Positions 2,632 through 15,128 of a stretch of 15,909 nucleotides of DNA are shown here, piece by piece (position 1 is the stretch's first letter; every line of letters starts with the position of its first letter). A program made the position numbers and the translations under genes. Source of the DNA: a virus. The DNA is taken from the UHGV virus genome UHGV-1808406. The stretch is one strand, 5' to 3'. The notes beneath the pieces were generated by a model. It searched no databases. It was not told the DNA's origin and saw nothing but the letters and a program-made list of their open reading frames with translations.

Positions 2632-3645
2632 TCATTTATAATAACTTCGGTGGTTTTCAAGATAGACCTTCTCAAGGAAGTCATCCCAGAAACTCATGTC
2701 TACTTTTTGCTGCATACCGTTCTTAGAAGCTTCAGTAGATGCTGCTTCTACTTGATCGACCACATCTTCCAAAAACTCTTGAACCGTTTTAAATGGATGT
2801 TTACCCAACTTCACGTCGAGAATAAATGGAGCGTCTTGAAGTGGATAAATCAAGTCGCCAGTTTTGTAAATTTCCAATAGTTGAAGTCCACCACGACAAG
2901 CATGACTCAGAGCTTTCCAGTCAATACCTTCATTGGCTTCAGCCTTACGAGCACGTTCACCATATTCAGCATCTAATTTGTTCAGTGACTGCTTAAGCTC
3001 AATAAGAGAAAGCGTTGTCTGATATTTACGACCCAACACAGTGTAGAACGTTTGTGGGCCTGTTTTCTCATGATTATGGAACACCCATTCACAGAATTCG
3101 TTTTCTGGAAGACGATGCTTAATATCTTCAACTTTAGTGCGACGCTGCTTAATAGAACCATCTTCTTGGTAATCAACCCATTGCTCAGGGATTTGATTAA
3201 CTACTTTCAATACATCACGTAATGCAGCCAAACGAGAACCCTTGACACCGTATTTAGAAGCTTGCTTACGGACATATCCTAAATATGATTTCATGTTAGT
3301 CGTATAAAAACGAGAACGGTTGTCTTGAATAAACTTCCACACATCAGGCAAATCAGATTTAACCACTAGTTCAGGTGGAGTGTGAAGCATATCTAATGCT
3401 ACAGTTTCACCATCTGCTGCTAATTTAAAGAAATATTTAAGACTGTATAGTTCATGGTCAATATCATCTTTAGTGTTTTTAGATGATGTGTTGTTAGTGT
3501 TTTTACTCATGTGCTCTTTGACATTTCCGATAAGAATATCGCGAGCAGGAGGAACAAAGATTTCTTTAAAATCTACATCAGATTCTGGGGTAGAAGTTCC
3601 ATAAAGATGACTACCAAAATAGCTTTTCATTACTGTTTTCATCAT
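2632..3645 (-). CDS. Pol-beta-superfamily nucleotidyltransferase, 337 aa, substrate unknown
   Basis: N-terminal motif G11-S12-x10-D23-V-D25 (GSHLYGTSTPESDVDF) fits the hG[GS]x9-13Dh[DE] signature. A further acidic cluster DDIDHE at 60-65 is a candidate third carboxylate. The ATG overlaps the upstream stop as ATGA. Confidence 0.7.
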   Translation of the reverse strand: MMKTVMKSYFGSHLYGTSTPESDVDFKEIFVPPARDILIGNVKEHMSKNTNNTSSKNTKDDIDHELYSLKYFFKLAADGETVALDMLHTPPELVVKSDLPDVWKFIQDNRSRFYTTNMKSYLGYVRKQASKYGVKGSRLAALRDVLKVVNQIPEQWVDYQEDGSIKQRRTKVEDIKHRLPENEFCEWVFHNHEKTGPQTFYTVLGRKYQTTLSLIELKQSLNKLDAEYGERARKAEANEGIDWKALSHACRGGLQLLEIYKTGDLIYPLQDAPFILDVKLGKHPFKTVQEFLEDVVDQVEAASTEASKNGMQQKVDMSFWDDFLEKVYLENHRSYYK

Positions 3646-4115
3646 TCAGCCTTATATTCAATAACAGGACATACTTTAGCTTTACGAGCTTTTAAAAATT
3701 CAACGATAATCGATTTCTTGGGTTGAATAGGAGGTAAACCTTTATACGCCCTATCAATATTTTCTATGTGTAAAGCATAATCCTTTTTCCATTTATAATC
3801 TTTATATTTTTCATGCAAATGTGCAGGAATAACAAATGAACCAATAATAAGTAAAACAAGCAAAATGGCAAGTATAAATGCTGATGGAATAAGAGTCCAT
3901 AAACTACCAAAAATAAGCCATTTCTGTATGATTTCTGCGCAGATGATAGTTAGACCTGCGAGTATAGTACATCCGAAAAAAGAAACGAAAAATGTAGGGA
4001 TAACAATAGACCAAAAGTATGCACACAGTGTCTTAGGTCGTTTCCATTCGTCGTTAAACAGTTTGAATAATTTATAGTGCCAAGAGTTTTCATTAATAAC
4101 CATAATTATAATCAT
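3642..4115 (-). CDS. Small membrane protein, 157 aa, 2-3 predicted transmembrane helices
   Basis: Hydrophobic segments FWSIVIPTFFVSFFGCTILAGLTIICAEI and LWTLIPSAFILAILLVLLIIGSFVI. ATGA overlaps with both neighbouring genes indicate translational coupling. Confidence 0.6.
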   Translation of the reverse strand: MIIIMVINENSWHYKLFKLFNDEWKRPKTLCAYFWSIVIPTFFVSFFGCTILAGLTIICAEIIQKWLIFGSLWTLIPSAFILAILLVLLIIGSFVIPAHLHEKYKDYKWKKDYALHIENIDRAYKGLPPIQPKKSIIVEFLKARKAKVCPVIEYKAE

Positions 4116-4633
4116 CCTTTCATTGAAGGTGTAACGTATGTTAAATACTTAATCATAGCCTCAGCTTCTGATTTTGACAATGAAATTTCTTCACCGTTTT
4201 GGCGAATAGAAACAAAATCTGGATGACGGTCACCGCCAGCCTTTAAAACACACATGTAAGTATCAACTTCGCCTTCAATATTTGAAATGATTGAAGCAGT
4301 TCCACATGAATGTGGTTGTTGATAAACTAATACAGCTTTTCTTCCACCGTTTGACTGTTCATAAACTTTTAACACATCAAACAAATCACTTCTTTTATCA
4401 ATAGCTAAGATGTTGTTTTCATCTTCAATATTAAATCCTTCGGATACTTCATAAAGTGTCACCCATAAATCACCAATATCAATAACAGCGTTCACTTTTC
4501 CATGACTTTCAAGAGCATTACAAATTTTCTTAATTTCATCATAACTCATTTTAATAATATCATCTCCTTGAATAAGGAAGATGTCATTTTTAAATTCAAC
4601 ACGAATTAAACCACTTCCACTTGAAATAAACAT
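4112..4633 (-). CDS. Hypothetical protein, 173 aa, paralogous to the upstream gene
   Basis: Its C-terminus SIRQ...SKSEAEAMIKYLTYVTPSM aligns with TIRQ...TKDEAIALKTYLDSVIPTM of 4640-5197, and both contain GFNI. A GAGG Shine-Dalgarno overlaps the upstream stop. Confidence 0.6.
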   Translation of the reverse strand: MFISSGSGLIRVEFKNDIFLIQGDDIIKMSYDEIKKICNALESHGKVNAVIDIGDLWVTLYEVSEGFNIEDENNILAIDKRSDLFDVLKVYEQSNGGRKAVLVYQQPHSCGTASIISNIEGEVDTYMCVLKAGGDRHPDFVSIRQNGEEISLSKSEAEAMIKYLTYVTPSMKG

Positions 4634-4639
4634 ATTTCC

Positions 4640-5197
4640 TCACTTTGAAATCATAGTTGGAATGACAGAATCAAGATAAGTCTTTAGCGCAATAGCTTCG
4701 TCTTTGGTAAATGTGACAATATGTGATCGAAAATCGTCAATTTGGCGAATAGTTAAGACATCTCCATCTTCATAACATTTTGATACGTTTAAAACAGTTT
4801 CATCATTCTGACTGCAAGCGTTAGTAATAATAGCATTGCAATTTTTAAGCCATTTTAAACTATGTTTTCTTTCATTAGAATAATAAAAATATTTAATCTT
4901 ATCTATAAAACTATCCCAATGGATAACTGATAAACACATTGACTCACTTTTAATATTAAATCCTGGGCATGAAGAATAAAAATGAACTTTATTCTCATCA
5001 TTGATGCTTACAATTTTATCAGTATAAGAATTTTCAATTTGGGTTAAATGAATAATTTCGTTAGGCGTAAAATATAGCATATCGTCTTCTTGTGTCAAAC
5101 GATACATATTATTTACTTTTTCTATAGCCAATTCACCAAAAAGTGAACTAACTTCTAATACTAATCGTTTCATATTGATTCTCTTCGACTCACTCAC
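4640..5197 (-). CDS. Hypothetical protein, 185 aa, paralogous to 4112-4633
   Basis: Possible GTG start at 5197 with an AAGGAG Shine-Dalgarno 9 nt upstream, or ATG at 5173. Conserved C-terminal segment shared with the neighbouring gene. Confidence 0.55.
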   Translation of the reverse strand: MSESKRINMKRLVLEVSSLFGELAIEKVNNMYRLTQEDDMLYFTPNEIIHLTQIENSYTDKIVSINDENKVHFYSSCPGFNIKSESMCLSVIHWDSFIDKIKYFYYSNERKHSLKWLKNCNAIITNACSQNDETVLNVSKCYEDGDVLTIRQIDDFRSHIVTFTKDEAIALKTYLDSVIPTMISK

Positions 5198-5199
5198 AA

Positions 5200-5304
5200 T
5201 TACATACTCCTTTGAATAATATCAATAATGTTGTTCACCAGATTATAAGTAAACATTGGGTAATTATATTGAATCATCACATACACAACAAACAAAACTT
5301 TCAT
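5200..5304 (-). CDS. Possible micro-ORF, 34 aa hydrophobic leader peptide (MKVLFVVYVMIQYNYPMF...)
   Basis: An AAGGAGAAGAGA Shine-Dalgarno precedes the ATG at 5304. It is the first ORF after the promoter at 5333-5361, and its stop overlaps the Shine-Dalgarno of the next gene. Confidence 0.3.
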   Translation of the reverse strand: MKVLFVVYVMIQYNYPMFTYNLVNNIIDIIQRSM

Positions 5305-6879: not shown

Positions 6880-7092
6880 TCATTTTTGTCCTGTATTTAC
6901 TTTATGCCGATGCACGGCCTTAACTTTATCAAGGTATTTTTCAAAATTTCGCAATCTAGTATAGTCTGCCGGAGATTGGTTGAGTGATACTTCTCGACGC
7001 AAAGCTGAAATGATATTTCCAACTTCCCTACGAATTTCATCTAATTGAAGCACAGTAAGATTGCGAAGTTGCTTTTCAGTTAATTGTAGCAT
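6880..7092 (-). CDS. Hypothetical protein, 70 aa, at the position of T4 rI.-1
   Basis: Sits between tk and rI as in T4; a TATAAATA late-promoter motif lies 25 nt upstream. Confidence 0.6.
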
Positions 7093-7117
7093 ATATACCC
7101 CTTTAGTTAGATAAACC

Positions 7118-7125
7118 TATTTATA
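7118..7125 (-). promoter_or_regulatory. Candidate T4 late promoter (TATAAATA) upstream of the rI.-1/rI genes
   Basis: Exact TATAAATA on the minus strand, 25 nt upstream of the ATG at 7092. Confidence 0.45.
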
Positions 7126-7134
7126 ACTTTTGCA

Positions 7135-7716
7135 CTAACCGAGCTTTTTAGTTAATTCATTCCAATGTTTTCTACACAAAGAAACATAAATTTCATCACC
7201 AATACAGATTTGATTACCTTCTTTAACTGGTGTTCCATCTTCCATTAATCGAGCTGTCATAATCGCTTTTTTACCACAATGACAAACTGCCTTTAGTTCA
7301 ATAAGTTTATCTGCAATCGCTAAAAGTTCTTTAGAACCTTCAAACAATTTTCCAGCGAAATCAGTCCTTAATCCATAAGCCATAACAGGAACATTATATG
7401 TATCAACAATTCGGCTTAATTGATGCACCTGTTCAGTTTTTAAAAACTGTGCTTCATCTACAAATACACAATGAATATCTTTTTGTGCTTCAGCCCATTT
7501 ATAGAACTCAAAAATATCCATATCATCCGTAATAATATTCGCTTCCTGTTTAATTCCAATGCGAGAAACGACTTCACAGACAGAATCGCGAGTATCAATA
7601 GCAGGCTTAAGAACTAATACACCCATTCCGCGTTCTTTATAATTATGCGCAGCAGTCAAAAGAGAAGCAGATTTTCCAGCATTCATTGCTGCGTAAGTAA
7701 AAATTAAACTCGCCAT
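7135..7716 (-). CDS. tk: Thymidine kinase, 193 aa
   Basis: P-loop AMNAGKSASLL, the VDEAQF motif, a C-terminal Cys cluster (CHCG...C) typical of type II thymidine kinases, and the T4 Tk length. Confidence 0.9.
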   Translation of the reverse strand: MASLIFTYAAMNAGKSASLLTAAHNYKERGMGVLVLKPAIDTRDSVCEVVSRIGIKQEANIITDDMDIFEFYKWAEAQKDIHCVFVDEAQFLKTEQVHQLSRIVDTYNVPVMAYGLRTDFAGKLFEGSKELLAIADKLIELKAVCHCGKKAIMTARLMEDGTPVKEGNQICIGDEIYVSLCRKHWNELTKKLG

Positions 7717-7725
7717 ATCACCTTC

Positions 7726-7911
7726 TTAAAGCGTATTCACATAAGCTATTAATTCGTTTTCTTTCTTATCAAACCGATCAGCAAATTCTTCTTGCTGTTC
7801 GGGAGATAGCGGGCCATATTCATCATAAAAGGTGTTTGCTTCTGTATGCTCATCTAGAAGTTCATGGATAAGCTCAAACAATTTATCTTTTTGTTCTTTA
7901 CTCAGACTCAT
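7726..7911 (-). CDS. Small, highly acidic hypothetical protein, 61 aa (tk.1 position)
   Basis: About 16 Asp/Glu against 6 Lys/Arg. Lies immediately upstream of tk. Confidence 0.55.
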   Translation of the reverse strand: MSLSKEQKDKLFELIHELLDEHTEANTFYDEYGPLSPEQQEEFADRFDKKENELIAYVNTL

Positions 7912-8081
7912 ATATTAATTTCCAGGAGTTTTAAAATAATTCGCTTTTGCTTAAATATTTCCATAGTTAAATGACCAGTATCTTTTTGACCGATTCCAAT
8001 GGCAAAACCTTTATTGACAGCGAGTTCAATTAAATTATCAAGCTCACGTAACACTTCATATTGTAACTCAAAACTATTCAT
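7908..8081 (-). CDS. Small ORF, 57 aa, absent from the ORF track
   Basis: ATGA overlaps at both ends (start 8081 against the upstream stop, stop 7908-7910 against the downstream ATG). Translation: MNSFELQYEVLRELDNLIELAVNKGFAIGIGQKDTGHLTMEIFKQKRIILKLLEINI. Confidence 0.45.
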   Translation of the reverse strand: MNSFELQYEVLRELDNLIELAVNKGFAIGIGQKDTGHLTMEIFKQKRIILKLLEINI

Positions 8082-8290
8082 TTTGGTTTACCTTCTTTAA
8101 CGAAATCAGGATAAGGATAAAATCCTGAATAAAATCCTTCACCTTTATGATTGATGCATCCTTTATTAGAACAATAGCACCAATAATCGAAATTACAAGC
8201 CATTTCATCGTTGCATAAAGCAAAAACAACCGGCCATTTACACTTTTCACAGTGGGCATTTTTAAGAATACTAGTTTGGCTCATAACCAT
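8078..8290 (-). CDS. Cys-rich small protein, about 70 aa, putative zinc-binding
   Basis: Contains HCEKCK (CxxC), CNDEMAC and WCYCSNKGC, giving seven Cys and two His in 70 residues. Confidence 0.55.
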   Translation of the reverse strand: MVMSQTSILKNAHCEKCKWPVVFALCNDEMACNFDYWCYCSNKGCINHKGEGFYSGFYPYPDFVKEGKPK

Positions 8291-8493
8291 GTCACCTTTA
8301 AGCAGTATTCTTCTACATGCTGTTTACGACCTTTCTTATCAATAAAGGTATATTCAACGAATGTTCCAATGTAGTCTTTATCTACATCATGTGGACTATT
8401 AATTGGACATTTAGTACGACAAATGCGTTCCCATTGACGAATAATTACTGCCTTATTCTTTGGGTCATATGGATGTGGATAATGTATATTCAT
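8281..8493 (-). CDS. Small hypothetical protein, about 70 aa (start revised to ATG at 8493)
   Basis: The track start is a TTG; the ATG at 8493 overlaps the macro-domain gene stop as ATGA. Confidence 0.5.
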   Translation of the reverse strand: MNIHYPHPYDPKNKAVIIRQWERICRTKCPINSPHDVDKDYIGTFVEYTFIDKKGRKQHVEEYCLKVTWL

Positions 8494-8957
8494 AATAATG
8501 GTTCCCAATCAACAATCACAATTTCTAATTTAGAAGAATATGTATCTAAAATATCTTCAATAATATCCCAGTTCCCTTTACCTATGCCTGCACCAATCCT
8601 AGGCATATAGATTGTAGGTTTAGTCAGTTTATTTTCACCAAACTCATTTAATTCTAACATACAATTCATTAAAGCGGAATACTCAAAATTTGGCCCTGGT
8701 TGAAATTGAGTATAAAGATTAAAGCAGTAAGCTTTATGAGTCCTAAAGTATTTTTCATAGACTGAGTAAGAACCGAGTTTAGTTACATCACCCCATTCAG
8801 TCTGTAATTTATCAGCTTCCAAAATTTTAGGGAAAGCTTTGGTTAATTGACCCGCTACGCCTGAACCCATAGTATGAAAACAATTGCATCCATGCGCAAT
8901 ATTTTTACCTTCAGCGAAAAGGGCGACAATATCGCCCTTGATATATTTTACAATCAT
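8490..8957 (-). CDS. Stand-alone macro-domain protein, 155 aa (ADP-ribose binding or hydrolysis)
   Basis: KGDIV...IAHGCNCFHTMGSGVAGQL matches the macro-domain GDI...NAAN...GGGV signature, and PRIGAGIGKGNW matches the second glycine-rich loop. ATGA overlap with the vs stop. Confidence 0.7.
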   Translation of the reverse strand: MIVKYIKGDIVALFAEGKNIAHGCNCFHTMGSGVAGQLTKAFPKILEADKLQTEWGDVTKLGSYSVYEKYFRTHKAYCFNLYTQFQPGPNFEYSALMNCMLELNEFGENKLTKPTIYMPRIGAGIGKGNWDIIEDILDTYSSKLEIVIVDWEPLL

Positions 8958-9301
8958 CTAGTACTCAATCCTCGATTATAAGAATCTACCAAACGGTCAA
9001 CCATTGAATGACAAGCGGCTTTATCTTTCTCCTCCGCAACTGAGCATTCTAAGGTATTCCACTTTTTAGCATATCGTTTTAACAATGTATCGTTTTTGTA
9101 TCTGCTTGATTTATCTCTTTCTCCGTCTTTATATGCATATATTAATTTCTGTGCAAATTCAGCTTGGCACGCTTTATTTTTCCCACAATAATCTGCCGCA
9201 GTGCGGTTTACATATTCTCTAATTTCAGTATATGATGTATCTGCTGATGCAGAAGCAGAAAATGAAATTAATCCTATACATAAAACCAAAATTTTAGTCA
9301 T
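8954..9301 (-). CDS. vs: Vs protein (modifier of valyl-tRNA synthetase), 115 aa, with an N-terminal signal-like segment
   Basis: Length and position (between tk.x and vs.1/regB) match T4 Vs. N-terminal hydrophobic leader ILVLCIGLISFSASASA. Confidence 0.8.
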   Translation of the reverse strand: MTKILVLCIGLISFSASASADTSYTEIREYVNRTAADYCGKNKACQAEFAQKLIYAYKDGERDKSSRYKNDTLLKRYAKKWNTLECSVAEEKDKAACHSMVDRLVDSYNRGLSTR

Positions 9302-9839
9302 TTACTATTTCCAAAAGTTTATTATTTTTAAGGTAATTAGCCTTTTCTAGGACTTCAGAAGCATATTTAGAACCAGCTTTAACATTCCATCCCGAATTAT
9401 AAGAGGATATTGCTTTTCTTATATCGCCCTTATGTATATTTAACCAATAAGAAAGTTCAATGTACGCCCAGGAAGCTGAATTGGATCGTTTATTCAACAT
9501 TCTTTTTATTTCAGCATCGGTCATATTATAACCAAGTTCCTTAACTCTCGCTCGCATAGTAGGCAAATAATTTTGGAACATTCCATAGGCGTGATGCTTT
9601 GGTTTAGATTTTAAATTAACTCCGCCAGAGCTTTCTTGCCATAAAATGGCTGCCATTATATGACCTAATCCACTCTTGTGGATGTTTTTGTGTGTTTTAT
9701 ATTTTCCATCCTTAGAAAATTGTTCCCCGAATTGATACGCGTAACGCATGTTATCGAGTTGGACATTACTGAAAGTATGCTCGGAGCTATGTGCCATCAT
9801 TGAAATGGCCAATAGACCAGCGAGTAGTGCTTTTCTCAT
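9294..9839 (-). CDS. vs.1: Vs.1-like secreted protein, 181 aa, with possible lytic transglycosylase-like core
   Basis: Signal peptide ALLAGLLAISMMAHS and a WQESSGG motif resembling the catalytic-Glu region of SLT/goose-type lysozymes. Position matches T4 vs.1. Confidence 0.7.
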   Translation of the reverse strand: MRKALLAGLLAISMMAHSSEHTFSNVQLDNMRYAYQFGEQFSKDGKYKTHKNIHKSGLGHIMAAILWQESSGGVNLKSKPKHHAYGMFQNYLPTMRARVKELGYNMTDAEIKRMLNKRSNSASWAYIELSYWLNIHKGDIRKAISSYNSGWNVKAGSKYASEVLEKANYLKNNKLLEIVND

Positions 9840-9846
9840 GCTTACC

Positions 9847-10308
9847 TCATTGAGTTTTAATTACTGCTTTAGAAGCCTTTCCTGGTAAACGACGACTGTT
9901 AATAATTGCCATCCTACATTGAAGTGACGGGTCTTTGAACTTCTCATTAGGTTTACAAACTGTAAATCCAAGCCAAAGATTTCCATCCGTGATTTCTAAA
10001 CGTCCAGGACGATATTCAACCCCATCAATAAAATCCTCGTCAATGTCAGGACGCGGAGGCATACTCAAGAATTCATTAACTTCTAAAACATGGTCTTTTA
10101 TTTTGTGGAATAATTCAAAAACATATGTCTCATCAATCTCCCGTTGAATTGCACGATCAAGAAGATGTTGAGAATATTTTAGATGAAACGATGAGACCCC
10201 TGCTGCTTTTGATGCCTCACGAATCTCATTGTTAATTTGACGAAACTCCGACTCAAAGTGACGACGGAGCTTATTTCGACGGATAAAAACTTCTGTGTTG
10301 ATAGTCAT
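9847..10308 (-). CDS. regB: RegB site-specific endoribonuclease (cleaves GGAG in early mRNAs), 153 aa
   Basis: Sequence and length match T4 RegB as I recall it, with the expected neighbours. Confidence 0.9.
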   Translation of the reverse strand: MTINTEVFIRRNKLRRHFESEFRQINNEIREASKAAGVSSFHLKYSQHLLDRAIQREIDETYVFELFHKIKDHVLEVNEFLSMPPRPDIDEDFIDGVEYRPGRLEITDGNLWLGFTVCKPNEKFKDPSLQCRMAIINSRRLPGKASKAVIKTQ

Positions 10309-10335
10309 GTTATTCTCCTCTTAACTGATAGAAAA

Positions 10336-10364
10336 ATTATACCACAGTCAAGAGGAAAAGTAAA
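10336..10364 (-). promoter_or_regulatory. T4-type early promoter: -35 GTTTAC, 17-bp spacer, -10 TATAAT
   Basis: Minus strand reads ctGTTTACttttcctcttgactgtggTATAATttttc, followed by a GAGGAGAA Shine-Dalgarno and the regB ATG. Confidence 0.7.
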
Positions 10365-10367
10365 CAG

Positions 10368-10646
10368 TCATTCTTTAAATCTAATCAATTTATTCATAGA
10401 CTTTGAAACTTCTGCACGAACCTCATGTAGATTTTTAAGCTGTTCAAGACGCTGCGTATAGTAAGCAATTTCATCTTCTTCGAGACAGTCCTGTGAATCT
10501 TCTTTAAGATAACGCGCATAGTCCTGGAAAGCGTTACGAATTACTTCCTGGAAATCATCAAGACTTTGAATTTTCTTAGGAGCAACAGATACACGACGAG
10601 GGGCAGTATAATACTCATAACCAAACCCTGCGCTTAATTGAGCCAT
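10368..10646 (-). CDS. Small hypothetical protein, about 92 aa (vs.3 position by synteny)
   Basis: Start revised to ATG at 10646 ([13 protein letters not shown]...) with a GAGG Shine-Dalgarno and a TAATG overlap with the upstream stop. Confidence 0.55.
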
Positions 10647-10912
10647 TAATATTTTTCCTCTGGTTGGAACACCGCGCGACAAGCCCACATACTAGCTTCT
10701 TTGAGTTTCGTTTTAGCAATAGTTAGCTGATCGAGGCTTTCAGCATAATTCTTTGCGAATTCGTAGTCTTCGCAATTATCTAGTGCTTCCCAGAATTCAT
10801 CGTATAAAGCGTCAAAGATAAGTCCTAAACGAACTTCAGCATCTTTGATAGCATTCACTTTACCGATTTTCTCTTCAGTATGCGGCTTATAACCTTTAAT
10901 GTCTTCAATCAT
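10646..10912 (-). CDS. Small acidic hypothetical protein, 88 aa (vs.4 position by synteny)
   Basis: Compact ORF in the vs block, acidic, no recognisable motif. T4 vs.4 is the reported anti-CBASS protein Acb2; homology here is not verified. Confidence 0.5.
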
Positions 10913-11126
10913 ATTCTACTTCCTCACCCGTTCCCAAATCATATTCAACTAAACGAATAGGTTCATGAATTCCATATCCCTGAACAGAAATTTCTGTCGT
11001 AGGATAAATTCCACTAATATCACCCATGTTCCACGCTTCATTAAATTGCTGTTCGCCTGAATTACTAAACCATTCGGCGAAAGCATTTAACACATCTTCA
11101 GAACCTTCAATAATTATCTTTGCCAT
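10905..11126 (-). CDS. Small, very acidic hypothetical protein, 73 aa
   Basis: About 15 Asp/Glu against 4 Lys/Arg; C-terminus GTGEEVEYD. Confidence 0.5.
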   Translation of the reverse strand: MAKIIIEGSEDVLNAFAEWFSNSGEQQFNEAWNMGDISGIYPTTEISVQGYGIHEPIRLVEYDLGTGEEVEYD

Positions 11127-12501: not shown

Positions 12502-12975
12502 TTATTTGAATGATTTGACGTACTGAATAGAGCCTTTGCTATTCACGAAAGCGATTTTACCATTTTTATTATACATGGTAGCAGTACGCTGATAGCCATA
12601 AGTTTGCTTACCAGATTGATAACCAACTAATGCAAAATTATCTTCACCCATTTTATTCTGTTTAGCGCGAATACGTTCATGACCATGCGCCATAAGAACC
12701 TTAGCATCACCAGTTGCAATGGATCTACGAGTTTTTTCATCTTCAACTGTATTAACAAAGTCGTCAAATGAATCAAATTTAGCATGGGATTTATTATACA
12801 GTTTTCCATCTACTGCATAATTGTATCCTTGTACATCCATCTCAACTTCTGTACCATCATCTAATACAGCAGTAATTTTCTGTCCTTTTTTAAATTTCAA
12901 AAGATCAGTAAAAGATTCAGCAATAATTTGAGAATTAATAGCTGCTTCAGTGATAAATTCTTGATATGTTTTCAT
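12502..12975 (-). CDS. Capsid-targeted internal protein (IP family) with unrecognised cargo domain, 157 aa
   Basis: N-terminal MKTYQEFITEA matches the T4 internal-protein capsid-targeting sequence (cleaved by the prohead protease after the Glu of (L/I)xE). Its 5' junction is identical to that of the other IP gene over 27 nt. K-rich body. Confidence 0.7.
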   Translation of the reverse strand: MKTYQEFITEAAINSQIIAESFTDLLKFKKGQKITAVLDDGTEVEMDVQGYNYAVDGKLYNKSHAKFDSFDDFVNTVEDEKTRRSIATGDAKVLMAHGHERIRAKQNKMGEDNFALVGYQSGKQTYGYQRTATMYNKNGKIAFVNSKGSIQYVKSFK

Positions 12976-13494: not shown

Positions 13495-14070
13495 TTAATT
13501 ACCACGAGCTGCATTAGCAACGGCGTAAGCATACTGAACATTAGCGTCTTTAAACGTACCTTTAGAGGTATCTAGTTCTGCCTTAAAGCCGCCTTTAGTC
13601 ATAACATCGGCGAATTCTTTACGGAAAGCCATTGCATCAAGACCTTTCCATGTAGATTTGTGCTTGGAGAATTCAAGACCAGCATAGTTGACAGCCTTAG
13701 CTAATTTATTATCAATAACCCATTTACCAGCTTTAGGCACAAACACCGGGCCTTTCTGTTTAGAGAATAGTTTTAAATTCCAGCGACGAAGGTCACCGTC
13801 AGCTTTAACAAAAGCTGCGTCCAAGTTACTAGCAACAACATCTTGAATATGGCCAAATTTAAGCCCATCAACTTCAATATTTAAATCGGTACGCCAGCGA
13901 AGTCCTTCCCAAGCGAAAGATTTAAAGTCGGAAGCTTTTGTAGCTAAGTATCGTTCAATAGGAGCTGTTTTAGGGTCAAAGCCGTTTCCTCGGTAAGTCC
14001 ACTCATCTTTATTAATGCCTTTGGCCTTTTCCACAGAAGCTTCAGCGATAAATTCTTTATATGTTTTCAT
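13495..14070 (-). CDS. ipIII: Internal protein III-like capsid-targeted basic protein, 191 aa
   Basis: N-terminal capsid-targeting sequence MKTYKEFIAEA, basic K-rich composition, a size close to T4 IPIII and a position next to e. Confidence 0.7.
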   Translation of the reverse strand: MKTYKEFIAEASVEKAKGINKDEWTYRGNGFDPKTAPIERYLATKASDFKSFAWEGLRWRTDLNIEVDGLKFGHIQDVVASNLDAAFVKADGDLRRWNLKLFSKQKGPVFVPKAGKWVIDNKLAKAVNYAGLEFSKHKSTWKGLDAMAFRKEFADVMTKGGFKAELDTSKGTFKDANVQYAYAVANAARGN

Positions 14071-14672: not shown

Positions 14673-15128
14673 TTAAAAGAAGTTGTTCATTATTCGGTAA
14701 AGTGAAGGACCCATCACATATTGCCACTGGGTACGAGGAATAAGAGCAAAAGCGTCCATCTCTGGAATCATAATACCGTCTTTATTTTCAAAATAAGACT
14801 CGCAATGGCAATTTCTAAACATCTCATGCTCTACTGGAATCGTATAATAAAATAACTGTAGGTCTTTATTACTAGAATATTTAAATACACCTAGGTCTTC
14901 TAGAAGATCTGGATTATAATTGCTAAAACCAGTCTCTTCTAAACATTCTCTTCGTGCTGCATCTAGTGCATTCAAATCAGAACTTTCTACACGCCCCTTT
15001 GGAATATCCCAGCGATGTGCCATCATTCCGGGCTTACGAGAACCGGTAACCCGACCCATAAATAAATCTTTATCTTCTGTCATAAAGATAATACCAGCTG
15101 ATAATGTTTTCATTTTAATTTCCTGCAT
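14673..15128 (-). CDS. nudE: Nudix hydrolase NudE (e.1), about 146-151 aa
   Basis: Nudix box GRVESSDLNALDAARRECLEETGF (GX5EX7REUXEEXGU). Lies immediately upstream of e as in T4. The likely start is the ATG at 15113, which overlaps the upstream stop as ATGA. Confidence 0.85.
   Translation of the reverse strand: MQEIKMKTLSAGIIFMTEDKDLFMGRVTGSRKPGMMAHRWDIPKGRVESSDLNALDAARRECLEETGFSNYNPDLLEDLGVFKYSSNKDLQLFYYTIPVEHEMFRNCHCESYFENKDGIMIPEMDAFALIPRTQWQYVMGPSLYRIMNNFF

Follow-up and report, generated by a model that had tools for sequence, protein, structure and literature searches.

Gene content of the tk-vs region

The window, that is the whole stretch of 15,909 nucleotides from the virus genome UHGV-1808406 which was analysed here, carries a dense gene array on its minus strand. 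The order tk, tk.1, tk.2, tk.3, (DUF7202 gene), tk.4, vs, vs.1 and regB is T4-like, and denV, e and nudE follow farther along from regB (Table 1). The tk.4 gene encodes a single-domain protein of 155 amino acids and lies, as the first-pass annotation had stated for its stand-alone macrodomain protein, within the tk-vs interval. It is the T2/RB18-type orthologue of T4 tk.4 (adfM). Both proteins have the same length and 153 of their 155 residues are identical (99%); this phage has T112 for I and D135 for G, and neither of the two columns is conserved.

Table 1. Coordinates of the genes, overlaps and codons discussed in the text.
Feature	Position	Strand	Evidence
tk	7135..7716		PF00265, 1.7e-60
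tk.3	8078..8290		comparison with T4
DUF7202 / phrog_2008 gene (70 aa), between tk.4 and tk.3	8281..8493	-	profile matches
ATGA overlap, tk.4 stop / start of 70-aa ORF	8490..8493	-	read from sequence
tk.4 / adfM, macrodomain of the ALC1/TARG1-like class	8490..8957	-	profile and structure matches, identity to T4
P119-RIGAGIGKG-128 codons, second Gly-rich (diphosphate-binding) loop	8574..8603	-	near-invariant residues and TARG1 alignment
Y82-T83-Q84 codons, position of the catalytic Lys	8706..8714	-	agreement of three alignments
Asp49 codon, invariant, specific to the Tk.4 family	8811..8813	-	D in 258/259 homologues
Asn25 codon (HGCNC), conserved macrodomain Asn, distal-ribose contact	8883..8885	-	N in 258/259 homologues
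ATGA overlap, vs stop / tk.4 ATG	8954..8957	-	read from sequence
vs (valyl-tRNA synthetase modifier), upstream neighbour	8954..9301	-	phrog_1256, 1.7e-39; T4 synteny
nudE orthologue (NUDIX; nudE position by T4 synteny)	14673..15128	-	PF00293, 1.8e-13

A megablast search with positions 8200..9400 matched 679 records, mostly T-even phages of Escherichia and Shigella, and the best matches were FL08, ESh31, RB18 and T2 (98.5-98.9% identity). In records of this type the gene is labelled tk.4, 'macro domain protein', 'Poa1p-like' or 'phosphatase', and the T4 record NC_000866 notes 'contains A1pp phosphatase motif'. The labels in related phage records are thus inconsistent and often wrong, 'hypothetical' and 'putative thymidine kinase' being further examples. 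The latter, used for T2 tk.4 in a 2026 preprint, is an error. In infected cells the Tk.4 protein of T2 has been observed, and a 2026 preprint reports RIL-seq pairing of the T2 tk.4 mRNA with the host sRNA ArcZ. The gene had been treated as unexplored, which is not the case: T4 records annotate it, and a genetic function has been published.

The tk.4 gene is translationally coupled on both sides, to vs upstream and to the DUF7202 gene downstream. Its stop codon TGA (8492..8490) overlaps the ATG (8493..8491) of the 70-aa ORF, and the DUF7202 profile begins exactly at the Met of this ATGA overlap, in agreement with the coupling to a small downstream ORF which had been noticed before. T4 has no DUF7202 gene, and its tk.4 is directly followed by tk.3. 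The RB14 record has RB32ORF111c annotated at the matching stretch, while T2, RB18 and RB32 each have one unnamed hypothetical protein there. Cys and His occur several times in the DUF7202 translation, among them C30, C34, H40 and C69 (numbering of the 75-aa frame started at TTG).

Scanning of positions 7000..11000 for promoters and terminators gave 14 sites, compared to 15.3 expected from shuffled sequence. Because the sites are no more common than in shuffled sequence, we make no claim about transcription. The best sigma-70-like site of this region (10336..10364, minus strand) is located just upstream of regB and consists of TTTACT, a 17-nt spacer and a TG-extended TATAAT (10/12 matches); this promoter-like site could be the source of an early regB-vs.1-vs-tk.4 transcript. 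The vs.1 product (9294..9839, minus strand, 181 aa) carries at its N-terminus a hydrophobic stretch that resembles a signal sequence, and it weakly matches the SLT lytic transglycosylase profile (1.4e-5, over the Pfam cut-off). A signal-like sequence is also found at the start of vs, and both proteins may be periplasmic.

A NUDIX gene at the nudE position is indeed present in the window, as the first-pass annotation had pointed out. A functional link to tk.4 was considered and rejected, since nothing connects the two genes except proximity and the ADP-ribose-type chemistry which both products handle: a distance of 5.7 kb with over a dozen genes, many of them unrelated, separates them (among these are regB, vs.x genes, denV, the lysozyme gene e and two genes for internal proteins), and no such link appears in the literature searched.

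Other parts of the window differ from T4 as well. Downstream of nrdC.11 the place of the T4 homing endonuclease gene mobD (4430..5209 of locus L001) is taken by two other ORFs at 3642..4633 (minus strand), coding for 157 aa (phrog_944 'membrane protein') and 173 aa (phrog_1502); this swap looks like a typical spot of T-even plasticity. The internal virion protein genes at 12502..12975 and 13495..14070 (both minus strand) differ from T4 too. One codes for a 157-aa DUF7412 / phrog_3155 'internal virion protein' and adjoins denV, the other codes for a 191-aa phrog_5341 internal virion protein at the IpIII position by T4 synteny. T4 instead has ipII (100 aa), situated between denV and ipIII and so flanking denV on its opposite side. 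Since internal proteins are known to serve as anti-restriction cargo, the variable 157-aa DUF7412 protein is possibly worth attention.

Fold and macrodomain class of Tk.4

Both macrodomain hallmarks which had been read from the sequence are present in Tk.4, with every quoted motif found: G8-D9-I10, H22-G23-C24-N25-C26, G31-S32-G33-V34-A35-G36 and P119-RIGAGIGKG-128. The Pfam Macro profile (PF01661) matches residues 22-136, corresponding to profile positions 2-117 of 118, with E=2.1e-6 and 28.1 bits, above the gathering cut-off of 22. Among solved macrodomains the single sequence matches BT1257 (5e-10), Poa1p (2e-6) and TARG1 (7e-4). A profile of 56 sequences gives BT1257 (4e-18), TARG1 (5e-15), Poa1p (1e-13), M. 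tuberculosis DarG (1e-13) and SCO6735 (1.4e-13).

A single-sequence AlphaFold run was unusable (pLDDT 41) and was replaced by a run with the alignment of 56 sequences, which yielded an AF2 model with pLDDT 94.9 and pTM 0.90. The best fold matches of this model are all macrodomains, the top Foldseek matches being TARG1 (9e-10) and Poa1p (3e-9). Tk.4 is therefore, by its predicted structure, a stand-alone macrodomain with the three-layer alpha/beta macro fold that the first-pass annotation had led us to expect. The conservation of N25 and of both Gly-rich loops supports a predicted binding of ADP-ribose.

Active-site residues

Three alignments (a profile alignment against TARG1 and BT1257, MAFFT and hmmalign) agree in placing Y82-T83-Q84 of Tk.4 opposite I-T-K84 of TARG1 and P-T-K80 of DarG. 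The catalytic motif of DarG is TK-G-G (K80 in T. aquaticus DarG) (PMC8120803); Tk.4 has no such Lys, and Gln84 is found in its place. In the profile and MAFFT alignments G126 of Tk.4 is opposite D125 of TARG1 (GCGLDRLQW), so that Q84 and G126 occupy the columns of the TARG1 Lys84/Asp125 dyad. Q84 aligns instead with the Gln of the NMIGQ motif in BT1257 and in SCO6735 (Q85).

The conservation of these positions was counted by hmmalign over 259 homologues, which include representatives of 50%-identity clusters from a library of 1.8 billion proteins. Q84 and Y82 are present in 259/259 sequences, and N25, G23 and D49 in 258/259 each. P119, I121, G122 and G124 are near-invariant in the family. In the D49 column DarG, SCO6735 and BT1257 have Tyr. 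The signature of the Tk.4 type can be written as HGCNC ... invariant Asp49 ... N-x-Y-T-Q ... P-x-IGxGxxGG-x-W, with a short mobile loop, and the closest members of this type which we examined are encoded on T-even-like phage genomes.

For SCO6735 the role of the Gln has been established, as both Q85A and Q85E abolish activity (PMC9411070). This enzyme cleaves the thymidine-ADP-ribose made by DarT more rapidly than either DarG or TARG1, leaves guanine-ADP-ribose untouched, and rescues E. coli as well as S. coelicolor from DarT (PMC9411070). Its mobile loop, which contains Lys89 and Lys93, is about 5 residues longer than in DarG and TARG1; a further Lys34 is present, and K34E nearly eliminates activity on DNA (PMC9411070).

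Distribution of the family and its cellular relatives

By tblastn at least 2,780 out of 50,697 phage records contain a member of the Tk.4 family. The phage names among the matches are mostly those of Escherichia, Klebsiella, Salmonella, Pseudomonas, Vibrio, Acinetobacter and Aeromonas phages, and individual matches include T-even-like phages and a Felixounavirus. A search with the Tk.4 profile returned 18,214 clusters at E<=1e-3 and 1,168 at E<=1e-30. Cellular relatives with 33-43% identity include proteins from Rhodobacteraceae, Desulfobacter, Calothrix and Hymenobacter.

Across 80 cellular loci with 4 kb flanks no conserved neighbour beyond lineage-specific synteny could be identified. A single-sequence phmmer search with P. 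aeruginosa DarT2, which has limited sensitivity, found no DarT2-like gene in the window or within 4 kb of the 80 cellular homologues. As neighbours do not recur and DarT2 matches are absent at these loci, an origin of the family from a two-gene toxin-antitoxin module is not supported. The cellular relatives are orphans, like SCO6735. Two homologues from supposed bacterial MAGs (P0073 and P0117; 1927..2397 of contig L002 and 5001..5480 of contig L003) are in fact encoded on fragments of T4-like phages, together with Rnl1, PNKP, a helicase (AAA_30/PIF1/UvrD_C_2), a T4 spanin and dCMP deaminase. These contigs are binned as 'Bacilli bacterium' and 'Culicoidibacterales' MAGs, and the binning is probably contaminated. 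Being phage contigs, they are uninformative on cellular context.

Tk.4 and resistance to DarTG2

The tk.4 gene and its anti-DarTG2 role are already known. In the HIDEN-SEQ preprint of November 2025 a T4 transposon library was studied on DarTG2-expressing E. coli; tk.4 was the single significant T4 gene needed on this host, and a clean tk.4 deletion rendered T4 DarTG2-sensitive (bioRxiv 10.1101/2025.11.20.689424). Its authors renamed T4 tk.4 adfM (anti-DarT factor Macrodomain), describe Tk.4 as structurally similar to M. tuberculosis DarG and propose that AdfM enzymatically removes ADP-ribose from DNA (bioRxiv 10.1101/2025.11.20.689424). Biochemical assays, catalytic-mutant or complementation data for Tk.4 were found neither in this preprint nor in other searchable literature. 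The first-pass annotation had named the reversal of DarT-like ADP-ribosylation as its first option, and this reading is supported because of the T4 deletion and transposon data together with the 99% identity to T4 Tk.4. From the same identity we infer that tk.4 of this phage is required on DarTG2 hosts as it is in T4. The further options, degradation of ADPR-derived immune signals and processing of products of the phage's own ADP-ribosyltransferases, gained no support.

We therefore regard it as likely that Tk.4 is an anti-DarTG2 macrodomain which hydrolyses dT-ADPr on phage ssDNA by means of an active site of the SCO6735/BT1257 kind. Tk.4 would be expressed early, as part of the gene string regB-vs-tk.4, and act as an orphan 'antitoxin' against bacterial DarTG2. 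During infection DarT2 would ADP-ribosylate thymidines in single-stranded phage DNA and replication would be blocked. The ADP-ribose would most likely be held between the two Gly-rich loops of Tk.4, and hydrolysis of the thymidine-ribose bond at a site formed by Gln84, Asn25 and the Gly loop would restore replicable DNA. Gln84, which replaces the Lys of DarG and TARG1, presumably orients the distal ribose so that an activated water can attack it. Hydrolysis of dT-ADPr by Tk.4 itself is suggested by analogy: SCO6735 provides a direct precedent, being an ALC1-like macrodomain that undoes DarT2 damage without the lysine, and this makes the mechanism credible for Tk.4. Against the model it can be said that Tk.4 lacks the two features tied to the DNA activity of SCO6735 (Lys34 and the long mobile loop), that the evidence on T4 tk.4 comes from a preprint, and that the copy in the window is two residues off T4.

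It is conceivable, though we consider it unlikely, that the Tk.4 type is a separate ALC1-like subclade with a chemistry unlike DarG and SCO6735 and maybe broader or other substrates, so that DarTG2 resistance would be one of several roles. If this were true, Asp49 might for instance serve as general base, and the substrates might include ADP-ribose linked to other bases of DNA or RNA.

SCO6735 inhibits DarT through binding even when its catalytic activity is lost, so that protection without hydrolysis is conceivable too. Tk.4 could accordingly bind and block DarT2 or shield modified DNA in a stoichiometric manner. Inhibition of DarT in vitro has been observed for catalytically dead SCO6735 (Q85A), DarG and TARG1, being strongest for SCO6735 (PMC9411070), other phage anti-DarT factors such as ICP1 AdfB act by binding, and the missing catalytic Lys of DarG would fit a non-enzymatic role. 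However, N25, Q84 and both Gly loops are invariant or nearly so across the 259 homologues, which come from very different phages and bacteria, and conservation of this kind at the ligand site is more readily explained by an enzyme directed at its ligand than by a surface that co-evolves with a single toxin. The 155-aa Tk.4 also has no counterpart of the C-terminal domain with which DarG binds DarT. Pure binding is in our opinion improbable.

Slightly less probable still is an action mainly on small ADP-ribose derivatives, with Tk.4 being an Appr1p phosphatase (Poa1p-like) or a degrader of ADPR signals, for which its similarity to Poa1p, the older annotation and a general consideration (PMC9503650) could be put forward. 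But the only phenotype found for T4 tk.4 is sensitivity to DarTG2, which is a DNA-modifying system, and Gln84 corresponds to the residue that SCO6735 needs to cleave dT-ADPr, whereas the sequence alignment with Poa1p places Ser opposite it. T4 is not known to have a Tpt1/KptA-type pathway that would produce Appr1p.

Very improbable is, finally, that Tk.4 erases or tunes ADP-ribosylation (or RNAylation) by the phage's own Alt, ModA and ModB: these three ARTs of T-even phages (PMC8120803) could form a writer-eraser pair with a macrodomain, and SCO6735 and TARG1 act on protein Glu/Asp-ADPr too (PMC9411070), but the sites of ModA (Arg265 of RNA polymerase alpha) and Alt (Arg84 of MazF) are arginines (PMC8120803), the documented substrates of ALC1-like macrodomains are Glu/Asp esters and thymidine and do not include the Arg linkage, tk.4 adjoins no ART gene in the window, and the gene is dispensable on plain K-12, where it is not reported as essential and the clean deletion is viable. 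A role against the mRNA ADP-ribosyltransferase CmdT was set aside, because CmdTAC is reported to defend robustly against T-even phages (PMC11618068), which carry tk.4.

Comparison with known systems

The closest counterpart of the gene studied here is T4 Tk.4/AdfM, the same gene in a sister phage and in the same place between vs and the tk.x genes; unlike T4, this phage has the additional 70-aa DUF7202 gene coupled to the 3' end of tk.4.

The DarG macrodomain (T. aquaticus, 5M31/5M3E; M. tuberculosis, 5M3I) is more distant. Identity is only 19-23%, Lys80 is replaced by Gln, and Tk.4 has neither the C-terminal DarT-binding domain nor a linked darT. Tk.4 covers positions 2-145 of 329 in the PADLOC model of DarG and 2-147 of 338 in the NCBIfam model, and its score of 30.1 bits against the latter is far below the cut-off of 250.

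Human TARG1/OARD1 and yeast Poa1p belong to the same class as Tk.4. Poa1p is an Appr1p phosphatase in the metabolism of a by-product of eukaryotic tRNA splicing. TARG1 also removes DarT-made dT-ADPr (PMC9411070), but neither residue of its K84/D125 dyad is kept in Tk.4.

With SCO6735 from Streptomyces coelicolor and BT1257 from Bacteroides thetaiotaomicron, Tk.4 shares membership of the Gln-type subclass of ALC1-like macrodomains. Nevertheless it is only about 25-29% identical to them, and the mobile loop that follows its Gln has 5-6 residues fewer, as in DarG and TARG1. Compared to SCO6735 it has Ser32 for the DNA-positioning Lys34, Gly23 for Val25 and Asp49 for Tyr. Lysine-independent hydrolysis of dT-ADPr has so far been documented for SCO6735 only.

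PhiKZ gp104, which has been named AdfM as well in a separate 2026 paper in Cell Rep (PMC13309987), is likewise a stand-alone phage macrodomain that beats DarTG2 and has the conserved Asn and Gly loops. It strips DarT2-made ADP-ribose from DNA in vitro, which is weakened by N23A, and rescues DarT2 toxicity (PMC13309987). BLASTP, with a match over 23 residues only (E 0.004), pairs this N23 with Asn25 of Tk.4, MAFFT agrees, and the two residues would thus be equivalent. Unlike Tk.4, gp104 belongs to the DarG-like subfamily, with Lys in FPTKDNW and a match of 9e-25 to M. tuberculosis DarG. The name AdfM therefore covers two macrodomain subfamilies with different active sites, the Lys-type PhiKZ gp104 being backed by biochemistry and the Gln-type T4 Tk.4 by genetics only. 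Judged by their sequences, Tk.4 and PhiKZ gp104 are functional analogues from different macrodomain subfamilies.
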